Source: a virus
Lineage: Duplodnaviria > Caudoviricetes
Strand: one strand, 5' to 3'
Length of the DNA stretch: 51,631 nucleotides
IMG/VR virus record: IMGVR_UViG_3300032282_002376
Span: 1-51,631 of that record
Numbering within the stretch: the stretch's first letter is position 1; each line of letters opens with the position of its first letter. Under the pieces are notes generated by a model. The model made no database searches and was not told the DNA's origin. It saw nothing but the letters and a program-made list of their open reading frames with translations. The translations under genes were made by a program, and so were the position numbers. Positions 11,399 to 37,637 of this stretch are shown here, piece after piece.

Positions 11399-11693
11399 GT
11401 TGCTGTATAAACTTACCCCCTACATGATCCTCAACTAAGAGCAGGTATCGACGTAAGTCACGAATATCATCGATAATACCCTCAGGGCGTAAGTCGTTAT
11501 TGACCGCCTCAAAGATATCATAATTATACTTTTTGACGTGATTCTCAAGCCTATCCCACTTACGGGCAAGCATCATGAAAGCGCCGACGCCCCCACGCTT
11601 TTTCCAAGAATCACCGTAAGACTTTTCAGCCTTAACCAAACCATCAATATCAGCAGCACTGATACCGTTCAAACCATTTATAAGATCAGACAT
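11349..11693 (-). CDS. DUF1599 / nucleotide-modification-associated all-alpha (MazG-like) NTP pyrophosphatase
   Basis: K..SYGDSW..RG, RKWDRL, D.IRDL..Y pattern; adjacent to the HD hydrolase. Confidence 0.7.
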   Translation of the reverse strand: MSDLINGLNGISAADIDGLVKAEKSYGDSWKKRGGVGAFMMLARKWDRLENHVKKYNYDIFEAVNNDLRPEGIIDDIRDLRRYLLLVEDHVGGKFIQQLDKEGEATDGYVNQDR

Positions 11694-12192
11694 CGTTGCG
11701 TTCCTTAATTAAATCTTCCAAAAGAGCTAACCCCACAGCATGGTCGCCTAAACCCGTGAGATATGTAACACCGCGATCGAAAACCTCACGCATTGTCGTG
11801 TTACCAAGCTCAAGCTCATCTATGCAACGATACAAAAGATCTAGCATATCAGCCCATTTTAATGCTAGCTGCTCATGCTCAGTTAAGTGAGGCAAGGCTA
11901 GATAATTATCATCAAGCATTTTACGTTCTAAATTATCACAAGCAAACTTCAACTCAGGCGAGCTCCACTTAGCAGTTGCAGGTATATCACCTGTCCACTG
12001 CTCAGCCGTATCGTGTAAAAGCGCAGCATAGATTAGAGATTTACTAGGCGAAGTTTCTAGCATAAGTAAAATAATTATTACATTTGCTGTATGCTCACCT
12101 ACGGTGTCAGTCGTTAGCATACGCCTTGTATGCCATCTTTTTACAGCGTTACCGTTTCTAACAGTTTTGATTACACTTGTTTTTACAGTCAT
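11686..12192 (-). CDS. HD-domain deoxynucleotide phosphohydrolase (YfbR-like)
   Basis: VKRWH, TVGEH, ALLHD.AE..TGDIP..K, KWAD motifs. Confidence 0.88.
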   Translation of the reverse strand: MTVKTSVIKTVRNGNAVKRWHTRRMLTTDTVGEHTANVIIILLMLETSPSKSLIYAALLHDTAEQWTGDIPATAKWSSPELKFACDNLERKMLDDNYLALPHLTEHEQLALKWADMLDLLYRCIDELELGNTTMREVFDRGVTYLTGLGDHAVGLALLEDLIKERNDV

Positions 12193-13214: not shown

Positions 13215-14035
13215 AGATCACATCCTTTTAGTTGTTTACCGTATTCTAAAGTTTCATTGAATTTCTCACAAAACCATGACCCCTCTTTGGAAGGAACAGA
13301 ATATTGACAAGAACGGCAATTTTGAAGTGGAGCCTCTTTACCCCAACATACGCCATGAGCATCACAGAACTTACAACGCCAATCAGTCTCTTTTTCCGCG
13401 ATACGGATAGGAGGCATGGTTGAAGTGATCAGTTTGTTTAGTTTGGCTTCTATTTCCGCTATCGTTGATTCGTCTTTATGTACACGCTCAATGTAAAACT
13501 TTTCGTCGTCTTTACAAATAGCGATGTATAACGCGCGAGTCAAGCCCGATAACCACATACCTGATTGCATCTGCCAATAGTGTTGAGGTTTAGCTTCTTT
13601 AACTCCCCTAGACTGAAGCTCCTTGAAGCCTTTTACATTAGATGATTTGATTTCGATGACATGGGGTGTTTTTTCTGCTGTAGGTACTCCACGAACCGCT
13701 CCGTCAGTTTTACAGACAAAATGCCCGTCAGCTGCCGTATAAGTCCACTGTTTACCAGTTTCAGGATTAACTTCCCATACCTCTAGACCTGCATCTTTTA
13801 AGTCTTGTACAACCCTATCTTCTTGAATGTAACCTGTCTTAAACAGTCTAAGCATCCTACCTTCGGGTTGTTCATTATGAAACCCACGCCAGTCGTACCA
13901 AATAGACCTGAGACACTCTTCACCTATACCAGACGCGCCGATACGTGTGAGCATAAGCTCTTTGCTATTCTTTTTCTCGTACGCTTGGTATATCAGGTTT
14001 TCCAGTGCTTCGGTTTCTTTTGGTATCGCTGCCAT
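13199..14035 (-). CDS. Cas4-like PD-(D/E)XK exonuclease
   Basis: IGASGIGEEC.R..WY, DG, EIKS, Q.Q motifs; C-terminal CKFC...C Fe-S-type cysteines. Confidence 0.85.
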   Translation of the reverse strand: MAAIPKETEALENLIYQAYEKKNSKELMLTRIGASGIGEECLRSIWYDWRGFHNEQPEGRMLRLFKTGYIQEDRVVQDLKDAGLEVWEVNPETGKQWTYTAADGHFVCKTDGAVRGVPTAEKTPHVIEIKSSNVKGFKELQSRGVKEAKPQHYWQMQSGMWLSGLTRALYIAICKDDEKFYIERVHKDESTIAEIEAKLNKLITSTMPPIRIAEKETDWRCKFCDAHGVCWGKEAPLQNCRSCQYSVPSKEGSWFCEKFNETLEYGKQLKGCDLWTAF

Positions 14036-14180
14036 TAGGTTCTTTCTTAATGATGACCGTTTCTTTAGTGGAAAAGAGGTGCCCGTTCGCGCATAACCTA
14101 CGTCTGTACAATGAGTTACTAGTAGTGCGCTTGCGGGTTTCTTTTACATCACTCCAAGAGTCACAAATAGGACAATTCAA
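13965..14180 (-). CDS. NrdR N-terminal-like zinc-ribbon protein
   Basis: CPIC...V.ETR...RRRLC.NGH.F.T.E pattern; TTG start. Confidence 0.65.
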   Translation of the reverse strand: MNCPICDSWSDVKETRKRTTSNSLYRRRLCANGHLFSTKETVIIKKEPNGSDTKRNRSTGKPDIPSVREKE

Positions 14181-15523: not shown

Positions 15524-15838
15524 TTAAAAACTTAAAAATAAACTGCTATAAGACAATTTATTTTTATCCCACCTAAGTATCATGCATCCTCCTAACAACT
15601 CAGCAGCTACGGTCACACAAATCGCGCATAGAGCGGGATCGCCAGCCATAACCAAGTAGTCATCAGGATGCATGTCACGTAGAGCCATTCTAGCATGTTC
15701 GATAGCTGCTTTGCCGTCAAAGTCTCGACCTATCGATGAAAATACATGCTTTACCTCGCCGTAAGCGTCTGCAGCTGAATAGTCGCGTCGCCTATCATAA
15801 CTGACGAGCCATACCGTAGGTATCCTAGTATCATTCAT
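15524..15838 (-). CDS. Hypothetical phage protein
   Basis: ATGA-coupled to the polymerase; DY..A..YGE, DDYL...GDP, LRWD pattern. Confidence 0.65.
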   Translation of the reverse strand: MNDTRIPTVWLVSYDRRRDYSAADAYGEVKHVFSSIGRDFDGKAAIEHARMALRDMHPDDYLVMAGDPALCAICVTVAAELLGGCMILRWDKNKLSYSSLFLSF

Positions 15839-17634
15839 TTAAGTTCTCCATATACTTTTCCAAATTTAACCTCTGCCTTAACTGGTAACTCACTCCACCA
15901 ATTAGGAGGGGTAGACATCACGTGCTCTACATAATCACGTGCTTTTTCAGCATCAGCTTCGTCCACTACAGCGACTAATTCATCATGAACTGTTAAAGCA
16001 ACTGGAAACTCTTGATGTACGATCAGTAGCTGCTCCATAACGATATGTCTAGCAGCTGATTGAACAATGTTCTCAGTGATAAGACCGCCATAGATACCTG
16101 AGCGCCCCTCGCCTCTGGCAGCGTAACTGTAGCGCCTCTCGCTTGAGTTGTAGCTTAAATCAGGATACAATAGGGGCAAACCAGTGGGTAAATCTATACG
16201 GTACTTACCCGTCTTAACAGGTATGTACTTACTAAGTAAGACCTCTGTACCCTCAGCCATAGCAGGTAGGGCTTTATCACAAGTATCCCAGAAGTCAACG
16301 ATTTTAGAATTTTTAAGTCTATATGCTTTGATAGCCTTCTCACACATCTCCATTGAAAGAGGTTTACCTTGCGTGCGTAAGAATTCAAAGAATGTTCTAG
16401 CCGACATACCGTAACCAGCGCCTAGCACCGTAACTTTTCCAAGCCAACGCTCATCCTCATCAGCTTTAGTGATATTCCTACCGTAGATGAAAGACGCCAT
16501 ATCGCAGTACGGGTCTAGCCCTTTGCGGAAAACTTCCATCAAATCTTGCTGACCAGCAACGCAAGCTAGAGCGCGAGCTTCAATCTGTGAGCTATCGCCG
16601 ACTACAAGCAACTTACCAGGAGGAGCTACAATACCTTTACGTAGCTTAGAACCTCGAGTCAAGTTCTGTAAGTTGATGCCCCCTCCACCGCTCATCCGTC
16701 CAGTGTGCGCTCCATAATAGACAAGAGGAACTGGAAGCAAGCCTGTCTTACCGATAGAGCTGAGCCTTGTAGCTCTAGTCTGTTCAATAGTAGATTTCAG
16801 CTTGAGTCTAGCACTGACTAGTTCTTGCACGCGAACGTCAGGATGGTCTAACAGGTCGGTTATACCCTTGTCCTGCTTAGAAAACGCGAATGTCGGCTTA
16901 CCAGTTCTAGGGCTGGTTTTCATAGGAGGGTTGACTCCCATTCTTTCCAGAGCTTCAGCAAACTTAGGATTTGACATGATAATATCAATCGTTATGCCGA
17001 CGTCCTTTAGCGTTTCTTCCCTACGCTTATCTAGCTCCTCTACATAGCGATCTAGCATCTTGTAATCTACAGCAAGCCTAGGAGTAGTGACCGCTTTTAT
17101 TGTCCATTGTAATAAAAGAAACTCAAACTTAGGAAATGTGTCTATCAGTTTTTTATAAACACTGTAGGTTAGATCGACGTCTCGAACGCAATACTCAGCT
17201 AAGATGTCACGCTCATAGTCTTGCAAATCCTCAAGTCTTTTACCCTTGGATACAGACAAGCCATCTAGCTTCTCACCAAATCCTAGACTTTTAGCGACTG
17301 AGTTTAGACTGTAAGAGTTCAATCTTAATTGAGAGCGAGCCAACCCCACTGTGTCAGTTATCTGTTCAGGAAACCAGTTGTAACGCCTAGCAGCGATAGC
17401 GCCGTCAAACTGAGCGTTATGACAGATAGCCCGAACCTGAGTACCGTAGTGCTTGAACGCTTTACCGATATCATCACCCCAAGCTAACGTAGTCGTTTCA
17501 TCATTTAGTTTGAACGCGCAACATATAGGCTGAAACCTAGAGTCTCGAATATACTCAGTTGAAGTCATCTTTGATAACGAGTACGTAGCAGGTTCGTAGT
17601 ACGTCTCGAAATCAATCGTTAAAGTGTCAATCAT
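15835..17634 (-). CDS. Family A DNA polymerase with 3'-5' exonuclease (APSE-like)
   Basis: Exo I DFET, Exo II HNAQFD, Exo III YCVRD; motif A DSSQIEAR, motif B R..GK...LGAGYG, motif C VHDE. Confidence 0.95.
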   Translation of the reverse strand: MIDTLTIDFETYYEPATYSLSKMTSTEYIRDSRFQPICCAFKLNDETTTLAWGDDIGKAFKHYGTQVRAICHNAQFDGAIAARRYNWFPEQITDTVGLARSQLRLNSYSLNSVAKSLGFGEKLDGLSVSKGKRLEDLQDYERDILAEYCVRDVDLTYSVYKKLIDTFPKFEFLLLQWTIKAVTTPRLAVDYKMLDRYVEELDKRREETLKDVGITIDIIMSNPKFAEALERMGVNPPMKTSPRTGKPTFAFSKQDKGITDLLDHPDVRVQELVSARLKLKSTIEQTRATRLSSIGKTGLLPVPLVYYGAHTGRMSGGGGINLQNLTRGSKLRKGIVAPPGKLLVVGDSSQIEARALACVAGQQDLMEVFRKGLDPYCDMASFIYGRNITKADEDERWLGKVTVLGAGYGMSARTFFEFLRTQGKPLSMEMCEKAIKAYRLKNSKIVDFWDTCDKALPAMAEGTEVLLSKYIPVKTGKYRIDLPTGLPLLYPDLSYNSSERRYSYAARGEGRSGIYGGLITENIVQSAARHIVMEQLLIVHQEFPVALTVHDELVAVVDEADAEKARDYVEHVMSTPPNWWSELPVKAEVKFGKVYGELK

Positions 17635-18617
17635 TTATCATTCTCTTTTGGGATGAGCCATGCCTTGCAAGCAGCACGCCAGTCTGTAGCGCGTATACTA
17701 TCAACATAGATCAACCCATTTCTAGCTCTTTTATGTTGCCACCAAACCATAGCCATCGGTTGAGCGACGTCTTGGAAGAACGCAGTCTTATAGATATGCT
17801 CATCTTGCGGGTCTAGCATGAAGCTTTCCAAATCTTTCTTCCAATCATTATGGTCGCAGTTTTCCATCAAAGGATATGGTGTAACTGCTAACTCAGCGTA
17901 GTCAGACTCATAGTAATCCAAAGGAACGTACGACGTGTCTTTCACTTTACCCCACACTTCTAAATTAGTATAGACATGCAAAGAGTCAGAAACTTGCGTG
18001 TAAGGACCGACTTTGTAACCGCATCTAGCAGCGACGTATTCTTGCAGCATACTGAAATGGACTACGTTGGCGCCCAGCTTTCCGTACAGCAAGTCATTAG
18101 AACGGCAGCATACTGTCATATAGAGCTCACCGTCACGAACCTTCCAATAGATATGAGTATTGCAGGGGTGATCAAGCATTGTTTTACCTAAGTCTAGGAC
18201 AGAGTCCCACATAGTGGTGACTACACGACGGTCGTCAGGATTTTTCTTTAGAAGTTCTATCGCTTTTTCTAGCTGATCGAAAGGTTGAGAATGCCTCAAC
18301 CGATGTCCGTACGCGCCGTAGAACGTATCGCCGTCATCGCTGTATTGCTTCATCTGTGAGTTAAAGTAGTCCAAGAACTCCACATCACGATAGCCTCCTA
18401 TGATCCAAAGACCCTCCATGCAATGGAAGAATGGATTACAGTTACGCTTCTCATTAAAGAGAACGCGCTCAGTTGGCTTCGCGTAGGTTGTAGCTACGGG
18501 TTCACAGAACTCTAGCACAGGACCGTTCCTGGAGCTACGCGGTTTACCTGAAGCTTTGATGCCGTTGATTTCAAGAGGGAAGGCGTGGTTAACATTTCTT
18601 ACGTTATAAGCTATCAC
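17631..18617 (-). CDS. Thymidylate-synthase-fold dUMP hydroxymethylase (5hmdUMP synthase)
   Basis: GTG 18617 with AAGGA RBS; SRNG, NPFFH..E..W, SDDG..GAYG.R, catalytic PCN, RSND..G..ANVVHFS.LQE (Asn at the dUMP-specificity position), SLHVY; clustered with aGPT-Pplases and kinases. Confidence 0.85.
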   Translation of the reverse strand: MIAYNVRNVNHAFPLEINGIKASGKPRSSRNGPVLEFCEPVATTYAKPTERVLFNEKRNCNPFFHCMEGLWIIGGYRDVEFLDYFNSQMKQYSDDGDTFYGAYGHRLRHSQPFDQLEKAIELLKKNPDDRRVVTTMWDSVLDLGKTMLDHPCNTHIYWKVRDGELYMTVCCRSNDLLYGKLGANVVHFSMLQEYVAARCGYKVGPYTQVSDSLHVYTNLEVWGKVKDTSYVPLDYYESDYAELAVTPYPLMENCDHNDWKKDLESFMLDPQDEHIYKTAFFQDVAQPMAMVWWQHKRARNGLIYVDSIRATDWRAACKAWLIPKENDK

Positions 18618-18627
18618 TGTTATATCC

Positions 18628-19524
18628 TTAGAATAAAGTTTCGGGAGAATAATTCGCACGCGGACGACCGCCGTTTGATGCGCGCATGTATTTATCAAAC
18701 TCACACATACAGTTCTGCCAATCATGCAGAGTTAAAGTGCTTAGATCAATTGTCGCCCAACTCTTGGATATTTCAAGAGTTTCCATCAGCTCCTCATTGA
18801 AACTGTCTTGGTGAGCGACTTGTTCTAGTGAGCGCCCATAGATACGGTTCAAACCTCTTGTAGACCCAGGACCTATTGGAGCAAACGAATACAAGTCTTT
18901 TGCGTCCTTTAATAGGGGGCAATACGTCATATCAGCTACAGCTTGCCCTGCCATGAAGGTACCCCAACCATAAATACCCTTAAAAAGCGCCAAAAGTTCC
19001 TCTATGGAGCGATCCTCAGGCTTCGTGTGGGTTAGGTAATGAGGTATCTCTTTATTGGAAAATAGAGGTTCTAGCATGTTTTTAGCAATAAAATACCCTT
19101 TACTCATACCTTTTGGTATATTTCTGCCCGTGATAAGGTAAGCGCCAGTCCAAGTTTTCAATCCTCGCTTCATACGGGCATCTATAACACTGCTAAATGC
19201 TGTAGCACTGAAAGACTCAACTGGCCACTCACCCTTGTCCATCAAGGCTTGTATAGTTGGAGGCCAGTTGATGTATCTAGCAATGCAAAGCATAATCCAT
19301 AACCATTCGTGGTCAAGATACTGGTCGATAACATTATTAACAATCCAAGCGGATACACGATCATCTTTGCGATGGATATTACAGAAACGGTACTTCCTCA
19401 ATATCTCATCCTCAGTCCAAGGTCTTTTCTGCTCAGGGTCTATGATCTTATTGTAAAAGATATTCTCACGCTCACTGACAAAATAAGCAAGCTTCCTGAT
19501 CATTATGTCTTTAGTTTCAAACAT
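18628..19524 (-). CDS. aGPT-Pplase clade 1 (HhH-glycosylase-fold, 5hmdU DNA kinase-associated helical domain)
   Basis: ER..I, PWT.D.IL..YRFCN..R.DDRVS, R.INWP, F.A.Q...D, GPGS.RGL, D.QNC.CEFDKY.R motifs. Confidence 0.88.
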   Translation of the reverse strand: MFETKDIMIRKLAYFVSERENIFYNKIIDPEQKRPWTEDEILRKYRFCNIHRKDDRVSAWIVNNVIDQYLDHEWLWIMLCIARYINWPPTIQALMDKGEWPVESFSATAFSSVIDARMKRGLKTWTGAYLITGRNIPKGMSKGYFIAKNMLEPLFSNKEIPHYLTHTKPEDRSIEELLALFKGIYGWGTFMAGQAVADMTYCPLLKDAKDLYSFAPIGPGSTRGLNRIYGRSLEQVAHQDSFNEELMETLEISKSWATIDLSTLTLHDWQNCMCEFDKYMRASNGGRPRANYSPETLF

Positions 19525-20083
19525 CGTAGCCGAGCCCTCTTAAAGCAATAGGAACTGCCTCATTGGAACTAACCCAGTGAGGGTTAAGACCTGCAGCATG
19601 AAGTTTTCTAGCTGATGATATGTTCTTCTTATCATTCGTTAGAATGTTATCCGTCTTTTCTATTGGACCTTTACCTTCAACTGCTCGACGAGCGTTCACA
19701 TTAGCGACGCATTGTTCGAAAGGGGTACTGAGGCAGATAGGTATCAGTGTAGCCCCCATCGCTTTTAGACGCGCGTTCAAGATCATTGTAGGCTCAAAGA
19801 CGTTTCCAACAATAACCCCCTCGTACAATACGTTCGTATAGTTAGAGGCTTCCACCACGGCGTCCCAAACCATTTGGGGCGTCTTTATAGTGTCACATCC
19901 ACCAGTTGGACGATCGTACTTTCCTAGAGCGACAAATGTTTTAAAGATATTTAACAGCACGCCGTTACTAGCTTCGCCTATCTTTATGAAGTCCTGAGCA
20001 GCATGCTCCATTATTCTCTTAGCAACCCAAGTCTTACCCGCGCCGTTGCTACCACGTATCGAAATTACATTGTATGTATTCAT
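19517..20083 (-). CDS. P-loop kinase, putative 5hmdU DNA kinase (copy 2)
   Basis: IRGSNGAGKT Walker A, GKY...GGCD, VLYEG, C..NV..RR lid. Confidence 0.8.
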   Translation of the reverse strand: MNTYNVISIRGSNGAGKTWVAKRIMEHAAQDFIKIGEASNGVLLNIFKTFVALGKYDRPTGGCDTIKTPQMVWDAVVEASNYTNVLYEGVIVGNVFEPTMILNARLKAMGATLIPICLSTPFEQCVANVNARRAVEGKGPIEKTDNILTNDKKNISSARKLHAAGLNPHWVSSNEAVPIALRGLGYDV

Positions 20084-20101
20084 AGCTTCGTTATCTAAAA
20101 G

Positions 20102-20695
20102 TTAAATTATAACGTTCTCAGCAGCGGTTTTCATATTAAATAGCTCAAGAGCTATAACTACTGCCTCACGTTGGCTTACTACTTTGGCGTCTAGTCCGTA
20201 GCTCTTTAGCTTCGCGTGCGCTAGCTCAACTGCTCTGTATTTAGGGATCAAAGACTTCTTAGGATCGAAAGGTTTTTCATTACCAACAATCGCCCTACGC
20301 TTCATTGTCTGTTCAATACATTTTTCTTTTGGAGTATCTAAAGTAAGCGCATGAAAGATCGCATACTCGGAGCAACCAGCAGCGATATCTACCGTCAGCT
20401 GTTGAAGTCCAGAAAGAAGTAAGCCCTCCATGACCACGCTTCCATACATTGATACCTCAGCTACAGCCTCTACTAGATCACGTACATTCTTTACACGATC
20501 AACCCCACCCGAAGCAGCGGAGTCGTACTTACCTATAAAAATTACAGGAGAAGCGTCTGTAGTTTTGTAAACATGAGTGAAGACGCCGTTTTGAGTCGTA
20601 TAGTCACGAACATGAGCCAGTCTAGACATGATAGCGCGAGCTGCTGTAGTTTTACCGCTACCATTCGTACCTCTAATATTTATGATGTGATTCAT
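20102..20695 (-). CDS. P-loop kinase, putative 5hmdU DNA kinase (copy 1)
   Basis: IRGTNGSGKTT Walker A, GKY....GGVD, VVMEG, C.....RR lid; paralogous to 19517-20083. Confidence 0.8.
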   Translation of the reverse strand: MNHIINIRGTNGSGKTTAARAIMSRLAHVRDYTTQNGVFTHVYKTTDASPVIFIGKYDSAASGGVDRVKNVRDLVEAVAEVSMYGSVVMEGLLLSGLQQLTVDIAAGCSEYAIFHALTLDTPKEKCIEQTMKRRAIVGNEKPFDPKKSLIPKYRAVELAHAKLKSYGLDAKVVSQREAVVIALELFNMKTAAENVII

Positions 20696-21465
20696 GATAT
20701 GATTTCCGTATCAAAAGGTTCTTCGGGCATATGCTTCAGTATCTCATCAGCGACGAAACCGTATCCCGTCAAGGCAAGACGTTTATCAACGATGTCTGCA
20801 CCTATCGCTTTACCGTTCTTATAGTAGCCCTTGATCATACAAGCTATGGTTTCAGCTTCTGCAACACCGCAGTCGCGAGTATAACGAGGTGGGGCTTTCA
20901 TCCATTTGATCTCGTTGACGACTTGTAATAAAGCGATATCTGAAGGCACGCCAGGAAATATGATGTTGAGCCCCTGTTTAGGAAGCTCAACCATATGTTT
21001 TTCAGAGTTTTTCCAGTCTACCGCATAGCCAAACACCGCCTCACGCAAGTCCATACACTTCCAAGTAAAGTACGTACCGATTTGTGGTATGTTTTTCTTA
21101 AGAAGCCCCATGAAAGAAGGTTGCATGCAGGCAGTAAAAAACTTTTCAGGAGTTTTGTACTCATTTACCCAGCGTTTCATCGCTTTTAACCCTGCTTGCC
21201 CCCTGAAATGACGCCTTTCAGCTGCTCTAGGTGCGGTATCATAGCAGTTAAAGAGCCCCTCCCAGAACTTATCACCTGTTAGCTCACACAGCTGAGAAGC
21301 TATACCCATGTGATAGTACGTCACGAAAGCCGTACACCATCGCATAAGCATATCCTCAGGAATATCTGATTTAGATAACGCTACATAAACAGGGTCTAAG
21401 TCGTCTGTACGAACGGTCTGCTTAGCAAACTCAGCCCAAGGTAAGTCAGGGTCATAGGTAATCAT
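20692..21465 (-). CDS. aGPT-Pplase clade 2, amino acid/amine:DNA transferase (AADT)
   Basis: DLDPVY, RW...F..YY..G.A, R.AERRHFRG, IG....WK..D, APP...R....EAET..C..K motifs. Confidence 0.85.
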   Translation of the reverse strand: MITYDPDLPWAEFAKQTVRTDDLDPVYVALSKSDIPEDMLMRWCTAFVTYYHMGIASQLCELTGDKFWEGLFNCYDTAPRAAERRHFRGQAGLKAMKRWVNEYKTPEKFFTACMQPSFMGLLKKNIPQIGTYFTWKCMDLREAVFGYAVDWKNSEKHMVELPKQGLNIIFPGVPSDIALLQVVNEIKWMKAPPRYTRDCGVAEAETIACMIKGYYKNGKAIGADIVDKRLALTGYGFVADEILKHMPEEPFDTEIIS

Positions 21466-21992
21466 GAGAATTGAACTGCCTTTAAGTAGTCAGAAGCGTG
21501 ATCATTGTAACCACCGAGCATGAACACGGGAACGCCACCATTACGCCATTTGGCAAAACTGGATTTATGCTTACGGTAATAGTTACGGTAAGCTGTAACT
21601 GCGTCACCCTCAACCTTGCAATCATCAGGCATAGCCTGAGGAGGCTCACGCCATAGATAGCCTTTAGCCATCAAAGCAGAAGGAGGTGAGCTTAACACGC
21701 CATTGATATATTTTTCGCAAGCGTGGCGTTTGTTGTAACGATTAGCATACTCACGGCAAAGGTAAGTACCTAAATCTTGAAGCCAGGAGTACTGAACTTT
21801 AGACTCAGCAGCCCATTTGACTGAAGGATGATTTTGATGAGTAGGTTTGTATGGAACGGCGTCGCCGTTACCATGAATATGATGCACAGTGCAAAGCATT
21901 TGAGCTGTTTCTAAAATCATTTTGACGACGTGGATATCACAATGCATAACAGCAGCGAGGGGGGCAGCGTGGTGTAGATAAAAGATATTCAT
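21462..21992 (-). CDS. Pyrimidine-dimer DNA glycosylase / endonuclease V (DenV)-like protein
   Basis: Start reassigned to MNIFYL; HCD.HVVKMILETAQML, YKPTH.NHPS..W, PPQAMPD, AYR.YY...K motifs. Confidence 0.75.
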   Translation of the reverse strand: MNIFYLHHAAPLAAVMHCDIHVVKMILETAQMLCTVHHIHGNGDAVPYKPTHQNHPSVKWAAESKVQYSWLQDLGTYLCREYANRYNKRHACEKYINGVLSSPPSALMAKGYLWREPPQAMPDDCKVEGDAVTAYRNYYRKHKSSFAKWRNGGVPVFMLGGYNDHASDYLKAVQFS

Positions 21993-21999
21993 TGTGATC

Positions 22000-22290
22000 T
22001 CACTTACGTGCAGTAATGCGTACAGTTGTAGACTCGCTGACTTTAGAGTTAGCACGAATGAACTGAGGTGATAGGTGAGCACGCACGGCATCCATATCAA
22101 GCGTTTCGCGTGTGCTGACACTAACCGAGCAGCGGAATGTTTTACCGTCATGAGCGCCGATGCCGATATCTGTGATCAGCGCATTTTTGAGGTCTTTTTC
22201 GTACAGCTCGAGATCAGCAATTTTAGCTTTGAGCTTACCAAGTGCATCAATCTTTTCTTCGATTGAAAGGGTAGAGATATCGTATGACAT
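22000..22290 (-). CDS. Hypothetical coiled-coil phage protein
   Basis: AAGGA RBS; first gene of the modification/polymerase transcript. Confidence 0.7.
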   Translation of the reverse strand: MSYDISTLSIEEKIDALGKLKAKIADLELYEKDLKNALITDIGIGAHDGKTFRCSVSVSTRETLDMDAVRAHLSPQFIRANSKVSESTTVRITARK

Positions 22291-22412
22291 ATAAAATCCT
22301 TAGTTAAGAGTTAGAAGTTAAACAGCGTTTTTTAAGCGCTGAGCTAATATTAAATCATTTTGCCGTCGCTGGCTAATTGTATTTTTATTATAGTTTTCTC
22401 CCGTTGATAGTT

Positions 22413-24776
22413 TTAACCTATTGGAACGAAACGCATCTTTAAAGACGGGTTCGTAGACATAATTTCTAAGCGATATTCAGTATCCCTGAATTCAAGTTCC
22501 GCTCCCCTGAGCGAGCCCAATGCTCTTCCTACAACGACGACTGAGCAGGCATATCCGTTACCTAGGCTTTTGACCATATCTTGCAGCTCAAGGTTCATAC
22601 CGATTTTATCGGATACTTCTTTTGAACTGAAGGCAACGGACGGACCAAACAAACCAATAAGCCAACTCAAGAATTCGTTTCTTTGAGTGGAGCTTTCATC
22701 TAAAGAGCCGTACTGCAAACGAAGGTTTGGATCCATAGGATCTTTCAAACCCAGCGCGATCACAGTTGTCCTGATAAGCTGATCCCACTCATAAAAACGT
22801 GAGGCTTCAAACCTAATTCTTTCTCGCTCTTCTGCAGGCATTTTTATACCAAACTCGAGTAACTTAAGAGCAGCTAGGATCAAAATCCTACGGTTCTTTT
22901 TGACGTGACTTAGTAATTGAGGATACTTGAACTCGGTAGTGTGCCTTTTGTTAAATACTAGAGTCAGCGACCTTGTAGCGATTTCATCATTAGGCGTGAT
23001 ATTGATACCGTTCAAAGTGATGAGCGCCTTTGGCATCAACCTGACTAGCTCATTACCTCCAAGCTTCCGTACGCTAAACGCTCCAGTAGTAACGATTTCA
23101 TTTAGAGCGCTAGACTTGAATCGCCCATTCTGATTGTCAAACACCATCACGTCAGGGTCATTCATGAAGTAAGTAGCGAGCTGTTTTGATTGTTCCTCAT
23201 CTTGTCTAGCCAGCGCATGCGTGTTAGCGTCGTTGGTCAATATCATTTGCGGTATCTGGCACCAAACAGTCTTACCGTCTGCAGGATATGGTGACGTGGC
23301 GATAAACATAGGAGCTAGAGGTAATATCTTTCTAGCTATAGCCGTTAGCATCGCCGTAATAGAGATAGACTTCCCCCATTCTGCGTTACTGAACGGAAAA
23401 TCGGAGTAAACATCAATGATCGTTTCTAGCGCCTTCTCAATAGTCATCAGCTTGAGGTCGTTAGATGTGATATCAACTGAGTCAGTTAAATAGAAGCCTG
23501 ATTCTGTATGGAAGCCTTGCTTGCTAAGTAGCTTACCATCATCCATTATGATAGGATACCTGAGCACGCCTTCTAGATTCGGTAGAAGTGTGTTGATACT
23601 AGGATCTTTAAGACGTCGTACGATAGACATATCCGTCCTAGCTACAATCTCCACCTTCTCTTTCTTATCAAACTGAATGAACTGGACGTAGCCTTCTAGA
23701 TGGTGAGCGAACGCGTCGTCATTAGGAGCGACAGGAGCTGCTATCATACCGCTCTTTGTAGACCTAGACTCTACGATCACGGCAGTGCCGTTGAAGTTGA
23801 ATAGCTTCTTTTCATCGTCAGGTACAGCAGCTAGAATCTTTACAACCTCATCAACTACTTCTCTAGGTTGTAGCTTGGAGATGTTGACTTTGGGCTTCGT
23901 GTCATCAGCTGCCTTGGCATGCTCGAGGTGTTTACTAGGAAGCCACGTGCGTATCCTATCAGTCTCCCAACCGAAAGCGTCCAATGATGCGAAACCAGAT
24001 ATGGTCTTGCCGTCTGCCAGTTTCTTGTAAGTATCATCGACCGCTCCGTCACGGTCAGCGTCTTCCTCATCACCAGTCAAGTATGATATAGCACGCATTG
24101 CTTTACGCGCCATTTCTATGGGTACTCCTGCTTTGGCGAAGCCACCAGCTACGCGTAAGAGGGCATCATGACGAATTCCAGGAGCGATGTTGTGCTTAAC
24201 CCATATGACGGTCATGAGAACGCCTAGAGCCATCTTTAGATCTTTTTCAGCTATCAGCGCTGGCTCGCCTGTGCAGTCAACCCAAGATACCGTCGATTCA
24301 TGTCTTGAAGGAGGGAAAGCCGTCTGCGCGTCATCACCTCGGTACTCAATACACTTGACTATCTTACCACCTGTTTCTTTCTTAGATAGCCTCCATTCAG
24401 CTGAGCTTTTTGTAGACCCCTCAACATAATAGATGTGATGTGATGCAATGATATCATCACTTTCGCCAGCGTACATACGTCCGAAGCGCCATGTTGTAGG
24501 AGGTAGAAACCAGTGAGCGATCTTTCTAGCGAGAGGGTGATCTAGGTCAACGTCAATCAAGTTTTTGGATACAGATCCAAGCTGTACGCCGATGTTAGCA
24601 AGTCCTTTGAAATTCTCAGCTTTAAATTCTTTGTCAGTCCAGTTTGTTACAGTCAAACTCTTTTTTCTTGCGTCTAACGGTAGGCATTTCCATCCTTTAG
24701 AAGTATAGGCAGCAAACGCTTTCTGGATCGAGTCCGCATGCGCGCGTGCTTCATCAAACGAGGCAGTTGTGTTCAT
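22413..24776 (-). CDS. Primase-polymerase (Prim-Pol) fused to a C-terminal P-loop helicase-like domain
   Basis: NIGVQLG...LIDVDLD, H.YY, QT.FPPS.H, G.RHD primase motifs; ADGKT and VMVFDN in the C-terminal part. Confidence 0.85.
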   Translation of the reverse strand: MNTTASFDEARAHADSIQKAFAAYTSKGWKCLPLDARKKSLTVTNWTDKEFKAENFKGLANIGVQLGSVSKNLIDVDLDHPLARKIAHWFLPPTTWRFGRMYAGESDDIIASHHIYYVEGSTKSSAEWRLSKKETGGKIVKCIEYRGDDAQTAFPPSRHESTVSWVDCTGEPALIAEKDLKMALGVLMTVIWVKHNIAPGIRHDALLRVAGGFAKAGVPIEMARKAMRAISYLTGDEEDADRDGAVDDTYKKLADGKTISGFASLDAFGWETDRIRTWLPSKHLEHAKAADDTKPKVNISKLQPREVVDEVVKILAAVPDDEKKLFNFNGTAVIVESRSTKSGMIAAPVAPNDDAFAHHLEGYVQFIQFDKKEKVEIVARTDMSIVRRLKDPSINTLLPNLEGVLRYPIIMDDGKLLSKQGFHTESGFYLTDSVDITSNDLKLMTIEKALETIIDVYSDFPFSNAEWGKSISITAMLTAIARKILPLAPMFIATSPYPADGKTVWCQIPQMILTNDANTHALARQDEEQSKQLATYFMNDPDVMVFDNQNGRFKSSALNEIVTTGAFSVRKLGGNELVRLMPKALITLNGINITPNDEIATRSLTLVFNKRHTTEFKYPQLLSHVKKNRRILILAALKLLEFGIKMPAEERERIRFEASRFYEWDQLIRTTVIALGLKDPMDPNLRLQYGSLDESSTQRNEFLSWLIGLFGPSVAFSSKEVSDKIGMNLELQDMVKSLGNGYACSVVVVGRALGSLRGAELEFRDTEYRLEIMSTNPSLKMRFVPIG

Positions 24777-26743: not shown

Positions 26744-26993
26744 ATTTCAAGTCCTCTAATTTTAACATGTATCCTTGCTTGGTAAGCCCACGCCATGGTA
26801 AGTGCTGGTCTTCGCTGACGTGCTGTTCTTTGTAACTGATTACTGCCTCATCAGGTAAGTGCCCTACAAAATACCAAAGACTTCCGTCCCAGTAAGCGTA
26901 GCCCAAGCCTGACCTGTACTGACGTTCAAATACGCCGTGGGTTTCAGGCTTCTGATAAGACCAGTCAGAATGCGTTCTTTGCTCAAACATCAT
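26736..26993 (-). CDS. Hypothetical protein
   Basis: KPE..GV.ER, YAYWDG..W, WRGL pattern seen in small phage proteins. Confidence 0.6.
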   Translation of the reverse strand: MMFEQRTHSDWSYQKPETHGVFERQYRSGLGYAYWDGSLWYFVGHLPDEAVISYKEQHVSEDQHLPWRGLTKQGYMLKLEDLKYA

Positions 26994-27340
26994 GTGTTCT
27001 TCTCCTTGAGTTTGGCTTCAGTTATAGACACAGCATCTATTGGAACTTCCAGTGCGATCTCCTCCCGTTCCTCATCCGTCAGCCCTACCCATGTGCGCTG
27101 TGGTGATGTGTAGAGTTTTGTACCAATAGGCAATGCAGGCTCATGCCACCAAGAATGTGTTACGTTTGCCCCTGATTCAGATATTACTGTTGCCACAGGC
27201 TCATCTTTTGTTTCTAGTGTTTCTTTGATGGCGGTAATACAGGCGTACATTTCAGGCTCAAAGTCTGCCAATACCCATCCACCTCTGTTGATTCGTATTA
27301 TCAACTGCAGAGCCATTTCTAATGCTTTATCTTTGGTCAT
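26990..27340 (-). CDS. Hypothetical phage protein (PQRTWVGLTDEE family)
   Basis: EPVA...LYTSPQRTWVGLTDEE...EAKLKEKN modular pattern; GGAG RBS. Confidence 0.65.
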   Translation of the reverse strand: MTKDKALEMALQLIIRINRGGWVLADFEPEMYACITAIKETLETKDEPVATVISESGANVTHSWWHEPALPIGTKLYTSPQRTWVGLTDEEREEIALEVPIDAVSITEAKLKEKNT

Positions 27341-32097: not shown

Positions 32098-32331
32098 TTA
32101 GATGAAAGTACAAGTAAGTTTCCAGCAGTCGCTAGCGAGTTCTTCGGTTTTTGTATTTCCACCGATGTATCCACCATGGAAGCCGTAAGCGTTTTCAAGG
32201 ATCAAAGTCGGGTTTTTGTATCCGCTGAGTTTGATTCCAATCACGATGCCTGATTGCTCGATGTCGCACTTGAAGCCTACGCTATCGCCTACTTTGATTT
32301 CATTACCGTCGATGTCTTTTGCTATGATCAT
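32098..32331 (-). CDS. Hypothetical SH3-like small protein
   Basis: D.DGNEIKVGD.V pattern; CTCCGAGGAG RBS. Confidence 0.6.
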   Translation of the reverse strand: MIIAKDIDGNEIKVGDSVGFKCDIEQSGIVIGIKLSGYKNPTLILENAYGFHGGYIGGNTKTEELASDCWKLTCTFI

Positions 32332-32351
32332 TTGATTCTCCTCGGAGTGGG

Positions 32352-32558
32352 TTAATTAGATTGGTCTTTTTTGTGGTTGCGTGCAAAGGTGCAAAGGGTT
32401 TCGTGGAGCTTTGAATCGGCACGAACCTTGCGTGGTGTATGTTGGTGGTGAACCTCGTCTGCGTCATACCTAGAAAGAAACACGCAATATTGAGTGCCTT
32501 CATGCTCAATGACGTAGTTAGTTCCACCTACGCTAGAGCTGATTTCTATGATGTTCAT
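32352..32558 (-). CDS. Hypothetical protein
   Basis: Start reassigned to MNIIEI after CTCTGAGGAGAACCAT. Confidence 0.6.
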   Translation of the reverse strand: MNIIEISSSVGGTNYVIEHEGTQYCVFLSRYDADEVHHQHTPRKVRADSKLHETLCTFARNHKKDQSN

Positions 32559-32629
32559 ATGGTTCTCCTCAGAGTTTGTTTGCTTAATACTAGCATCGCT
32601 GCTAGTTTCGCCCATTCAGGGCTCGTCAG

Positions 32630-32860
32630 TTAAGCTTCTACTTTTTGAATTGTCACGACGCAACCGTAAGTGCTTACACCGCGAACACAGCTCAAATTGT
32701 CAAAAGTGGGTGGGTTGTCCAAGTGATAAAATTGCTCAGAGATGGCGCACTCAACGCTGTAGCCTAGCATATCTTGGAAGCGTTTTAGAGCGGCACTCTT
32801 GGTCTTGTAAACACGCTTGTCAGATCCGTCGACGTCTCTTGTAGTTACGATGTATTGCAT
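32630..32860 (-). CDS. Hypothetical protein, first gene of the leftward arm
   Basis: CTCCGAGGAGAACCAT-ATG, with TATAAT 50 nt upstream. Confidence 0.6.
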   Translation of the reverse strand: MQYIVTTRDVDGSDKRVYKTKSAALKRFQDMLGYSVECAISEQFYHLDNPPTFDNLSCVRGVSTYGCVVTIQKVEA

Positions 32861-32910
32861 ATGGTTCTCCTCGGAGGTTGGTTAGTTATAAGTTGACTGC
32901 CTAAGAGTTA

Positions 32911-35891: not shown

Positions 35892-37637
35892 ATGCCAAAA
35901 GTAGACGTCCAAGACCCTGTAGAATTAGAGCGCTTCGCTCAGCTTGAGCGAGAGTCTGGACCCTACATCGGTTATCCTAACGTAAAAAAGCACACGGCTC
36001 CGCAAGGGGACGTTAACGCGCTGCCAGATCCAAGAACCTACGCAGCTGTATCGGGTTTTCTAGGAACGCCTACAGAAGAACAAGGTTTTAGCGTATTTCA
36101 CCCTGATCTTAAAAATATCAGAACTGCGGGTGACTTAGGGTATGGAGCAGGCATTGCAGCTAACTTACTACCTGCGTTGGGTCCTGCAGTCAAAGGAACA
36201 GCACGGCTTGTTGGACAGGCGCTGAGTGACGCGTCGATGGGTCAAGGTTATAAAGCACTACAAAACGTAGTACCTCAACCGATGTTTGCTGTACCACCTT
36301 CGTCGTCAAAACTTACTCATGACAAATTAGACCAGCTGCTCAGCAAAGTCAAACCTATTGATGAGCTTGGACCAAATGACTTCCCTGAGTATATCGCCGA
36401 ACCGCTGTCGCATAACACAACAGGTTATCATATTACACAGGATATCACTGCGCCAATCAAGGAAGGGTTGTTGACCAACCGAAGTGTTGGTAATAACAAC
36501 GTACAAGGCTATGTACCTGAACATGTTGGTGGTGCTTATTTCTGGTCACATCCTCAGGTGGCTAGAGTTCAACGCGAGCGTTTTTATGAGATGGACCCGA
36601 ACTTTGATGACTACCCGCATGAATTTCCTGTCATGAAATTCAAACTGAACAATAAAGAGCACAGCTTTTTGCCTGATGAAGACTCAGGTGTTAATAATTG
36701 GCGTGAAAGTTACAAGGGTGGGGCTTTTGCTACAAAAAATCCAATCAGCATAGATAATCTTGAGGCTATTTACACAGGTGATGTTGAAGGTACAAAAGCT
36801 CAAATACGCTCAGCTTTCCCCTCTAAAGTTGAAACTAGTAATAAACCTACTACGCCTATAACTCCAAAACAATATAATGAAAACTTAGCAAACTTCAATA
36901 AAAATAGCAAAGAAAAAGGAGCTTGGTATCACGGCACCGCAAGTGACGTAACAGAATTTAAACCAGAACTCGGTTTAGAAAAACCCAATCAAGCAGGAGC
37001 AGCTTTTTTAACTCAAGCTCCTGAATACGCTGAGAAGTATGCTTTAGACGCCCCGATCTATATGGCAAAAGAAGCTCATAAATATTTAACGCCTGAGCAG
37101 ATGGCGTCTGCGCAAGAAAAAGCAAAACAGTATTTTAAAAAAACATATAAAGATATGCCTGAGCATAGAGACTCCATGATCAAGTCTATTGAAGAAGGCA
37201 AAGCAGTAGGAGAAGCTGAAGATCAATTGATTGCAGAATATCAAAAACATCTTCCATCAGGTCCTAATATCATGAAGGTGCATCTTAATGTGGAAAACCC
37301 TTTTGATCCTGCCATTCCTGAGCATGTTGAAGCTCTTAAGGTTTTTAATCCTAAACTAGATCCTAAACTAACAGACCGTATCGGTGTTACCGCAGTGCTA
37401 GAGCATCCTGATATACAAGCAGCAATTAAAGGCTCAGGCTTTGACTCTTTCTATACCAATGAAGACGGTTACAGAAATATTGGTGTATTTGACCCTACTA
37501 GAATAAAATCAGCTATCGGAAACGAGGGGACTTTTGATCCCACCAATCCGGTAATTACTAAGAAAGACGGAGGCTCAGTTACAGTTGAAGATCCCGTCTT
37601 AATAGAACAAAAGCTAAAGCTCATGGGGCTTATTTAA
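35892..37637 (+). CDS. Polyvalent protein with C-terminal ART-PolyVal-like ADP-ribosyltransferase domain and a second ART-like domain
   Basis: C-terminal WYHGT...AFLT..P.YA..YA...NI..VHL..ENPFD...GFDS...VFDP..IKSAIGNEGTFD; middle GYHIT...IKEGLL...GAYFW. Confidence 0.7.
   Translation: MPKVDVQDPVELERFAQLERESGPYIGYPNVKKHTAPQGDVNALPDPRTYAAVSGFLGTPTEEQGFSVFHPDLKNIRTAGDLGYGAGIAANLLPALGPAVKGTARLVGQALSDASMGQGYKALQNVVPQPMFAVPPSSSKLTHDKLDQLLSKVKPIDELGPNDFPEYIAEPLSHNTTGYHITQDITAPIKEGLLTNRSVGNNNVQGYVPEHVGGAYFWSHPQVARVQRERFYEMDPNFDDYPHEFPVMKFKLNNKEHSFLPDEDSGVNNWRESYKGGAFATKNPISIDNLEAIYTGDVEGTKAQIRSAFPSKVETSNKPTTPITPKQYNENLANFNKNSKEKGAWYHGTASDVTEFKPELGLEKPNQAGAAFLTQAPEYAEKYALDAPIYMAKEAHKYLTPEQMASAQEKAKQYFKKTYKDMPEHRDSMIKSIEEGKAVGEAEDQLIAEYQKHLPSGPNIMKVHLNVENPFDPAIPEHVEALKVFNPKLDPKLTDRIGVTAVLEHPDIQAAIKGSGFDSFYTNEDGYRNIGVFDPTRIKSAIGNEGTFDPTNPVITKKDGGSVTVEDPVLIEQKLKLMGLI

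Follow-up and report, generated by a model that had tools for sequence, protein, structure and literature searches.

What base would a phage make from a thymidine-hypermodification cassette that carries no gene for tailoring the installed group? This question is raised by a freshwater phage genome, the IMG/VR virus record IMGVR_UViG_3300032282_002376, which we analysed as one whole linear contig of 51,631 bp (hereafter, the window). A first-pass annotation, made from the letters of the sequence, had described a run of its genes as a minimal operon for modifying 5-hydroxymethyldeoxyuridine (5hmdU) in DNA and as the best candidate for an undescribed system. We find that the window probably encodes a working direct-transfer pathway for thymidine hypermodification in which no tailoring step follows, and the cassette itself is real and, from its genes, almost certainly functional. 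The architecture of this pathway is already known from Delftia phage PhiW-14 and Acinetobacter phage SH-Ab 15599 (15599), so that the cassette opens no new kind of system; its distinctive point is the donor, the metabolite that its transferase would place on DNA. Our reading is based on what the genes are, on the conservation of their catalytic residues, on gene order across relatives and on placement in trees; from these we infer each of the enzymatic steps, the class of donor and the division of the cassette into two modules.

The minus strand between 15.8 and 22.3 kb holds a run of genes with almost zero spacing, in which every gene named by the first-pass annotation is present: a DenV-like gene, the clade-2 aGPT-Pplase (AADT), two P-loop kinases (K2 and K1), the clade-1 aGPT-Pplase (Pplase1), an enzyme of the thymidylate synthase (TS) fold, and PolA (Table 1). 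The run also includes an open reading frame (ORF) of 96 aa without a family. The interval that the annotation assigned to the operon, 17631-21992, encloses all the named genes except PolA, which lies just outside it. The profile searches that it had suggested as a check placed the AADT (PF18724), Pplase1 (PF18723) and both kinases (PF18748) above their curated Pfam cut-offs. The same was true of the TS-fold enzyme and PolA, and the PHROGs matches concurred. Successive junctions measure -4 nt (DenV-like/AADT), -4 nt (AADT/K2), +18 nt (K2/K1), -8 nt (K1/Pplase1), +10 nt (Pplase1/TS-fold) and -4 nt (TS-fold/PolA). The cluster is not an assembly chimera, because a second study, in its own assembly (run X2), yielded a 7,276-bp contig that is collinear with window positions 17146-24421, with 111 substitutions and zero gaps. 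When 50,697 phage records were searched with the cluster by blastn, zero matches were returned.

Table 1. Coordinates of the cassette genes and the associated nucleotidase in the window, and of the additional ORF found in six related IMG/VR loci (identified by locus number).
Feature	Coordinates	Strand	Profile matches
PolA, family-A DNA polymerase with 3'-5' exonuclease	15835-17634	-	PF00476 1.6e-26; PF01612 5.8e-6; phrog_17 4.6e-82
TS-fold enzyme, read as dUMP hydroxymethylase, 328 aa from GTG	17631-18617	-	PF00303 4.5e-23; phrog_5131 7.9e-104
Clade-1 aGPT-Pplase (Pfam HMUDK_hel), Pplase1, 298 aa	18628-19524	-	PF18723 2.3e-43, 149 bits vs cut-off 25
Kinase K1, P-loop 5-hmdU DNA kinase paralogue, 188 aa	19517-20083	-	PF18748 3.6e-9, 36.8 bits vs cut-off 27
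Kinase K2, P-loop 5-hmdU DNA kinase paralogue, 197 aa	20102-20695	-	PF18748 1.7e-6, 28.1 bits vs cut-off 27
AADT, clade-2 aGPT-Pplase, 257 aa	20692-21465	-	PF18724 5.6e-8, 33.2 bits vs cut-off 26.2; phrog_6364 6e-51
DenV-like gene, 176 aa	21462-21992	-	phrog_624 1.8e-55
HD-domain YfbR-like 5'-deoxynucleotidase	11686-12192	-	PF12917 1.3e-16
Additional ORF (~254 aa), L007	9250-10014		
Additional ORF (~254 aa), L008	9202-10014		
Additional ORF (~254 aa), L009	363-1121		
Additional ORF (~254 aa), L010	9202-10014		
Additional ORF (~254 aa), L012	9247-10014		
Additional ORF (~254 aa), L014	9178-10014		

The TS-fold protein shares 44.5% identity with M6 gp58 and 42.5% with PaMx11 gp51 (E ~1e-85), and the modified bases of M6 and PaMx11 are described in the literature as built on 5-hmdU. 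Its frame is open up to 18725, but translation probably begins at the GTG at 18617, which fits the homologs. The best solved relative is the CMP hydroxymethylase MilA (4.4e-19), with canonical thymidylate synthases following at 1e-14 and weaker. In the HMMER alignment to MilA, the 'GAN' of the window protein lies opposite the MilA 'SD', placing Asn against Asp, and the motif 'HPCNTH' is also present. We take the Cys of 'HPCNTH' to be the nucleophile and the Asn of 'GAN' to occupy the position that separates uracil from cytosine specificity in the TS-fold family. The Asn that the first-pass annotation had placed at the specificity position is indeed found there, and the family matches, together with the kinship of the TS-fold protein to the M6 and PaMx11 enzymes, support its description of the cassette as based on 5hmdU.

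Strictly, sequence cannot separate a dUMP hydroxymethylase from a thymidylate synthase. An ordinary thymidylate synthase would leave canonical T in the DNA, with the kinase and Pplase genes inactive or otherwise used. We consider this highly improbable, given that the protein strongly resembles the M6 and PaMx11 enzymes but only weakly canonical ThyA structures (~1e-12), and that the full cassette is conserved with its catalytic motifs intact in 12/12 relatives. Homologs of K2, K1 and Pplase1 occur in all 12 related IMG/VR loci, and a TS homolog in 11 of these, L012 being the exception.

Outside the cluster, the HD-domain protein was the sole match to nucleotide metabolism among the 69 distinct window ORFs that were scanned with Pfam. 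It shares 35-36% identity with Rhodoferax gp17, PaMx11 gp52 and M6 gp59, and in M6, PaMx11, Rhodoferax P26218 and a Manatee Spring podovirus the annotated gene next after that of the TS-fold enzyme is an HD gene. We count the window gene, as the counterpart of these, into the system, in which the 5'-deoxynucleotidase is likely an accessory that acts on the nucleotide pool.

The transferase was examined against enzymes for which structures or mutants are available. By sequence, the window AADT matched Protein Data Bank (PDB) entries 8z2m, the PaMx11 glycinyltransferase (1.6e-19), and 25qc, the AADT of YuA (1.9e-14); the family as a whole is found in 99 phage records. In the 15599 enzyme, Pplase2, the catalytic Cys226, the metal ligands E222/T223, and D25 are reported as essential by mutagenesis, and G227, H230, D238 and D243 as specificity residues, while the residues given for the YuA glycine enzyme are D24, E96, K159, K248, Y257 and D262, of which K248 and Y257 hold the glycine carboxylate (PMC13458397). 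According to the same report, two pocket residues decide which metabolite is put on DNA, and a G227K/D238Y double swap converts the 15599 diamine enzyme to a glycine enzyme. After the published residue numbers had been checked on the 15599 and YuA protein sequences, the window AADT was aligned to them. It retains D24, Y51, E83, Y132, K136, E205, T206 and C209; C209, E205/T206 and D24 align with C226, E222/T223 and D25 of 15599, and D24, E83 and K136 with D24, E96 and K159 of YuA.

At the four specificity positions, the window AADT has M210, G213, K219 and D224. The corresponding residues are G/H/D/D in the diamine enzymes of PhiW-14 and 15599, K/S/Y/D in the glycine enzymes of YuA, M6 and PaMx11, W/K/R/D in the serine enzyme of ViI, and V/Q/Y/R in the Rhodoferax type. 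An HMMER alignment to 8z2m reproduced the M/G/K/D mapping. Thus, the Lys and Tyr that mark the glycine type at YuA positions 248 and 257 are M210 and K219 in the window enzyme, and only the last residue of the diamine set (Gly227, His230, Asp238, Asp243) is matched. A search of the full library for the AADT family gave 510 representatives at E<=0.001, of which 150 were listed and 145 were aligned, 5 having been dropped because they fell outside 200-330 aa. Among these aligned, listed representatives, the catalytic Cys was present in 143/145 and the glycine-type signature K-S/A-Y-D in 87/145, and none of the 145 others had Lys or Arg at the third specificity position, which is occupied by K219 in the window.

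Phylogeny, which the first-pass annotation had also proposed as a check, places the window enzyme in a third branch, outside both the glycine and the diamine clades. In a tree of 60 rows, the window clade (7 rows, SH-aLRT 100) lay outside a 23-row glycine clade (SH-aLRT 99) and outside a clade of 20 rows (95) in which PhiW-14 and 15599 stand with the other G/M-H-D-D proteins, and it was sister (SH-aLRT 94) to a 10-row clade that includes the Rhodoferax type. A further tree also put the window enzyme outside the glycine clade (99/98). A constraint that united the window clade with the diamine group, a group named after the tree had been seen, was rejected (log-likelihood difference 38.1, p-AU 0.007). 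For this third branch, comprising the window and Rhodoferax types, no characterised member was found in the literature. Rooting with Pplase1 was discarded as unreliable, because the clade-1 and clade-2 families fail to align at the profile level, and only unrooted groupings were used.

Since Lys219 lies opposite the Asp of the diamine enzymes, a carboxylate-bearing amine, such as an amino acid, is favoured over a diamine. By analogy, Lys219 would suit a carboxylate donor as K248 does for glycine and as R299 perhaps does in ViI. Judged by the pocket, we infer that the donor is not among the tested classes. We tentatively suggest, while holding it as somewhat doubtful, that the donor of the window-clade AADT is new to DNA, likeliest a carboxylate-bearing amine or amino acid beyond glycine and serine, and that the product would be a new, unprocessed T adduct, with K1 and Pplase1 forming a second, separate module. 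The chance that the cassette makes a new adduct is moderate. The combination of a pocket seen in none of the 145 other listed representatives with a branch that has no tested member gives a small, defined target, two or three genes plus 5hmdU DNA, in the search for a further natural DNA base.

Several observations weigh against our overall reading of the cassette. The pocket varies even inside the window's own AADT clade (MGKD, MAKD, GQTD and SYTD), and for this reason the specificity positions may be less diagnostic here than elsewhere. Nor does Lys219 exclude a diamine donor, because the D238K variant of the 15599 enzyme is reported to keep ~20% activity with diaminopropane (PMC13458397). 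K2 exceeds the PF18748 cut-off only narrowly (28.1 vs 27 bits), and its sisterhood with the Rhodoferax-type kinases has a support of just 86/86. No Pfam family of a dCMP deaminase or a dUTPase/dTTPase, both of which are used in 15599, was seen in the 69 scanned ORFs. Lastly, the phage assembles normally from the short-read runs of several samples, which lends no support to a bulky modification, nor does it contradict one.

A rival reading is that the cassette works with one of the established donors (putrescine, 1,3-diaminopropane, glycine, serine or glutamate), yielding a base already described as a final base or an intermediate; we regard this as a serious possibility, short of a likelihood. 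Its case is helped by the variable pocket, and by the best characterised AADT relatives in tblastn searches, which were PhiW-14 gp109 (2e-30) and 15599 Pplase2 (7e-27), the latter an enzyme with a broad substrate range in vitro (PMC13458397). Furthermore, D224 matches an Asp that is conserved across all tested classes. However, the full signature fits none of the four tested classes, and the phylogeny speaks for a different donor: the third branch has no characterised member, grouping with the diamine enzymes was rejected, and the glycine clade excluded the window AADT in both trees.

The direct-transfer pathway that we favour has no tailoring step. As the first-pass annotation had stated, no known tailoring gene is recognisable: PLP-dependent (pyridoxal phosphate), radical-SAM (S-adenosylmethionine), flavin-dependent and acetyltransferase families were found in 0/69 of the Pfam-scanned ORFs. 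The annotation had cautioned that such genes might lie in missing kilobases. CheckV estimated the completeness of the contig at ~90%, and terminal repeats were not detected in it. A protein identical to the DenV-like product occurs on a contig of 52,430 bp, which is ~800 bp longer than the window, and when the window is compared with the circular genome MW202545.1, its contig junction is placed among tail-fibre and lysis genes. Because the longer contig barely extends the window and the junction maps to such genes, a tailoring gene is unlikely to lie in the missing bases. MW202545.1 itself (L042, from Manatee Spring, 57,457 bp) has a virion module in common with the window (major capsid protein 84%, portal 55% and TerL 55%) and a different replication module, with neither TS nor AADT and with an annotated 2OG-Fe(II) oxygenase and a ParB-like nuclease domain protein. 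One virion chassis thus bears different DNA-metabolism modules.

Most relatives of the cassette differ from the window next to the AADT. Three loci (L004, L005 and L006), with AADTs 70-86% identical to that of the window, have exactly the window's gene order. Six others (L007, L008, L009, L010, L012 and L014), whose AADTs are 63-66% identical, carry between the DenV-like gene and the AADT an additional ORF of ~254 aa that the window does not have. In L011 and L013, this slot holds a truncated, unassigned ORF, and L015 could not be judged. The ~254-aa protein had no match in Pfam, PHROG or PDB sequences and just 28 relatives in a large protein collection. The ESM Atlas groups it with class I SAM methyltransferases. 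Its AlphaFold2 model (pLDDT 89.5) matched at least 500 solved chains in Foldseek at E<=0.001, and the top matches were methyltransferases of nucleic acids and small molecules, e.g., Trm1, Hen1, RlmCD, RumA and DNMT2. Its predicted fold makes the protein a candidate for tailoring or for DNA methylation in the relatives. The idea that it is a paralogue of the AADT was rejected on comparison. Three further ORFs were noted in these loci: one with a DHHA1 domain between the AADT and K2 (L012, 10786-11697), a phrog_3704 'ferredoxin' between the TS-fold gene and PolA (L009, 4902-5564), and a 517-aa ORF upstream of the cluster with a weak glycosyltransferase-34 match (L010, 4761-6314).

That the relatives' methyltransferase-fold gene escaped both Pfam and PHROGs means that enzymes linked to the cluster can evade profile scans. 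A tailoring step might thus exist without having been recognised, its enzyme being supplied by a small ORF without a family, by the host or from the missing bases. Many window ORFs indeed have no family, and the CheckV completeness is 90% rather than 100%. Nevertheless, we judge such a step to be distinctly improbable. No unassigned ORF of the replication module exceeds 198 aa, the sequence lacking at the contig ends corresponds to tail-fibre/lysis genes of the circular relative, and the longest contig with an identical DenV-like protein adds only ~800 bp. In addition, the 4-nt overlap between the DenV-like gene and the AADT leaves no room in the window for a remnant of the methyltransferase-fold gene.

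A direct-transfer pathway needs a kinase, and the window has two. K1 and K2 are 32% identical to each other, and the Walker A motif is intact in both (GSNGAGKT in K1 and GTNGSGKT in K2). In a kinase tree that included the window and five relatives, the K1 proteins formed one clade (99/99) and the K2 proteins another (98/94). The K2 clade had as its sister group (86/86) the lone kinase of the Rhodoferax and Manatee Spring podoviruses, phages without Pplase1 in which this kinase comes next after the AADT; K1 fell within a group of poorly separated branches with PaMx11 gp49 and PhiW-14 gp37. Taken together, the junctions and the kinase tree suggest two modules, AADT with K2 and K1 with Pplase1. 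The two kinase/transferase pairs envisaged by the first-pass annotation thus find some support and are a reasonable idea, but no activity of a clade-1 enzyme was found reported in the literature consulted, and M6 gp55 was dispensable in lysates.

Pplase1 has a set of invariant residues that includes C274, E275 and K278 in alignments of 11 and of 44 sequences, and it groups with PhiW-14 gp72 (95/87). Its AlphaFold2 model has a pLDDT of 92.5. As regards a helix-hairpin-helix, glycosylase-like fold akin to that of clade 2, the best VIA-align chain was PaMx11 gp46 (8z2n_B; Z 10.2, root-mean-square deviation 4.0 over 224 residues), a match that is tied with an archaeal Ogg (Z 9.9) and whose Z score is, according to the tool, common for helical proteins. 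Foldseek returned zero matches for the model at E<=0.001, and a comparison of clade-1 with clade-2 profiles by hhalign gave a probability of 0.9%, i.e., no significant similarity. A prediction of the Pplase1-K1 complex had a score of 0.00 (mark 0.32), which speaks neither for nor against binding. No fusion to a kinase was seen among the best 120 Pplase1 homologs (281-366 aa), longer forms not having been searched.

If the two pairs acted independently, the cassette could make two products, the clade-1 enzyme either adding a second group or converting leftover 5-phosphomethyl-dU (5-PmdU) to thymine. We think this unlikely, although a number of features are in keeping with it. The overlaps fall within the pairs and the 18-nt gap between them, and K2 groups with AADT-adjacent kinases from phages that do not have Pplase1. 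K1 and K2 are old paralogues, each of which is kept in 12/12 related loci. A kinase gene precedes Pplase1 in M6 and PaMx11, and the two are fused in SP10 gp186. SP10 makes glutamyl-T, and no clade-2 gene was detected for it in our PF18724 search or is given in Table 3 of PMC5889632. The invariant Cys-Glu..Lys motif of Pplase1 and a predicted fold that is closest, in a tie, to a clade-2 transferase would also be compatible with a second transfer reaction. Against this stands the M6 lysate reconstitution, in which gp54 and gp51 are reported to have sufficed and gp55 to have been dispensable (PMC8989533). Moreover, in the portions of the T-hypermodification literature that we consulted, no activity of a clade-1 aGPT-Pplase was found reported, the two clades show no significant profile similarity, and the fold match has a Z score common for helical proteins. 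The cassette also offers a target for asking what clade-1 Pplases do.

In the direct-transfer pathway as we envisage it, the TS-fold enzyme would make 5-hydroxymethyl-dUMP, with the HD nucleotidase helping to shape the nucleotide pool, and the phage PolA would incorporate 5hmdU from 5hmdUTP into DNA. A P-loop kinase would then phosphorylate the 5-hydroxymethyl group on the DNA. With 5-phosphomethyl-dU as its substrate, the AADT would use the Cys209 thiol and a metal bound by E205/T206 to expel the phosphate and would join a free metabolite that bears an amine to the exocyclic methylene, and the adduct would remain as installed. The cassette would work as two coupled pairs, AADT with K2 and K1 with Pplase1.

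The first-pass annotation had argued from the tailoring-free gene set to an undescribed system, and had given the characterised carriers as sipho- and myo-type phages. The argument is not supported, and carriers are not limited to these types, since PhiW-14 (putrescinyl-T) and 15599 (dapT) are already tailoring-free, and since Rhodoferax P26218 (36 kb), a 38.5-kb 'Podoviridae sp.' and HTVC023P-type podoviruses carry cassette genes. In HTVC023P-type podoviruses, which are pelagiphages, a TS and an aG/PT-PPlase1 near PolA have been published (PMC9599517). PhiW-14 has a kinase, Pplase1 and Pplase2, with neither a PLP nor a radical-SAM enzyme in Table 3 of PMC5889632 (Lee et al. 2018), and Table 1 of PMC8989533 (Lee et al. 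2021) gives the function of its gp109 as putrescine:DNA transferase. As the window would, it combines hydroxymethylase-based 5hmdU, a P-loop kinase (gp37) and both Pplase clades (gp72 and gp109) without tailoring, in its case to give alpha-putrescinylthymine. Unlike the window, it has a 157-kb genome in which one kinase was detected and the genes are scattered, and gp109 has the diamine pocket, whereas the window AADT lies outside the diamine clade.

Phage 15599 is reported to make alpha-1,3-diaminopropanylthymine with a hydroxymethylase, a kinase and Pplase2 alone (Li et al. NAR 2026, PMC13458397). It is similar to the window in having a kinase and Pplase2 without tailoring, and the two transferases have in common the catalytic Cys, the E/T metal ligands, the N-terminal Asp (D25 in 15599) and a Lys (K143 in 15599, the equivalent of YuA K159). 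In the pocket, D238 of 15599 is replaced by K219 in the window, whereas D243 is kept as D224. The 143-kb genome of 15599, a member of the Ackermannviridae, also differs in adding a dCMP deaminase and a dTTPase/dUTPase. In 15599 we also noted a clade-1 Pplase homolog (L039, 8961-9926; 33% identity to that of the window, 5.6e-49), which lies immediately upstream of the dUMP hydroxymethylase; the word 'Pplase1' is absent from the main text of PMC13458397.

The Pseudomonas phages M6 and PaMx11 have the same order as the window, with AADT, kinase, Pplase1, TS-fold and HD genes and PolA nearby, but their tailoring genes (PLP and radical-SAM in M6, flavin and acetyltransferase in PaMx11) lie between the AADT and the kinase, where the window has K2, and their pocket is of the glycine type. 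Salmonella phage ViI has, like the window, two kinases, both described as active (PMC8989533), and both Pplase clades; it differs in its PLP decarboxylase and its serine-type pocket, and its gp243 is very divergent from both K1 and K2, forming a long branch in the kinase tree. Rhodoferax P26218 (complete) and the Manatee Spring podovirus MW202557 (38.5 kb) are small, podovirus-type phages with AADT, kinase, TS-fold and HD genes and no annotated tailoring gene. Their AADT clade is sister to that of the window, and their kinase is sister to K2, but they have a single kinase, no Pplase1 and the V/Q/Y/R pocket. A chemical characterisation of these two phages was not found in literature searches in which the phage names were not queried, and 'Rhodoferax' does not occur in PMC5889632. 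Carin-5 (PMC12686479) was set aside as irrelevant, because that report concerns SP-15-like phages with sugar modifications.

The DenV-like gene heads the overlapping run, as the first-pass annotation had noted, but its inclusion in the pathway is unlikely. The protein had no direct Pfam match at E<=0.1; homologs at 47-62% identity carry a precomputed PF03013, and NCBI names one of them 'pyrimidine dimer DNA glycosylase/endonuclease V'. The family is found in 618 phage records, compared with 99 for the AADT, and these are dominated by cyanophages, vibriophages and T4-like Acinetobacter phages, mostly not known for T hypermodification. Given this distribution, the gene is probably a repair gene that chances to head the operon and a mere neighbour of the pathway. 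PaMx11 gp45 was considered as its homolog and was rejected on comparison as not homologous.

We detected no tRNA genes in the window, and promoter-like sites were not enriched (28 observed vs 28.4 expected from shuffles). One promoter-like candidate lies at 22416-22387, in the sole sizeable intergenic gap, and can serve as a pointer only, since the number of sites is no higher than in shuffled sequence. Small shares of the window's words were present in freshwater and lake runs X7-X14; no habitat claim rests on these.

A few features elsewhere in the window were also recorded. A 116-aa ORF without a family (26990-27340, minus strand) shows numerous alternative joints in the contigs of the samples, and its depth there sums to 182-237, compared with ~10 elsewhere, and for these reasons it looks repeated or mobile and common to many genomes in the samples; a homolog lies between the TS-fold gene and PolA in L010 (13795-14166). 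Adjoining the large terminase, a 581-aa protein (35892-37637) contains an ART-PolyVal domain, the ADP-ribosyltransferase of polyvalent proteins (5.2e-13). Among small early ORFs at 32316-32888, a 44-nt direct repeat occurs three times (64-75% identity to the reference copy) with spacings of 227 and 302 nt, and the copies overlap the start regions of minus-strand ORFs. Finally, a 71-aa ORF at 13965-14180, inside the replication/recombination module, has an NrdR-like zinc ribbon (PF22811, 9.3e-7).

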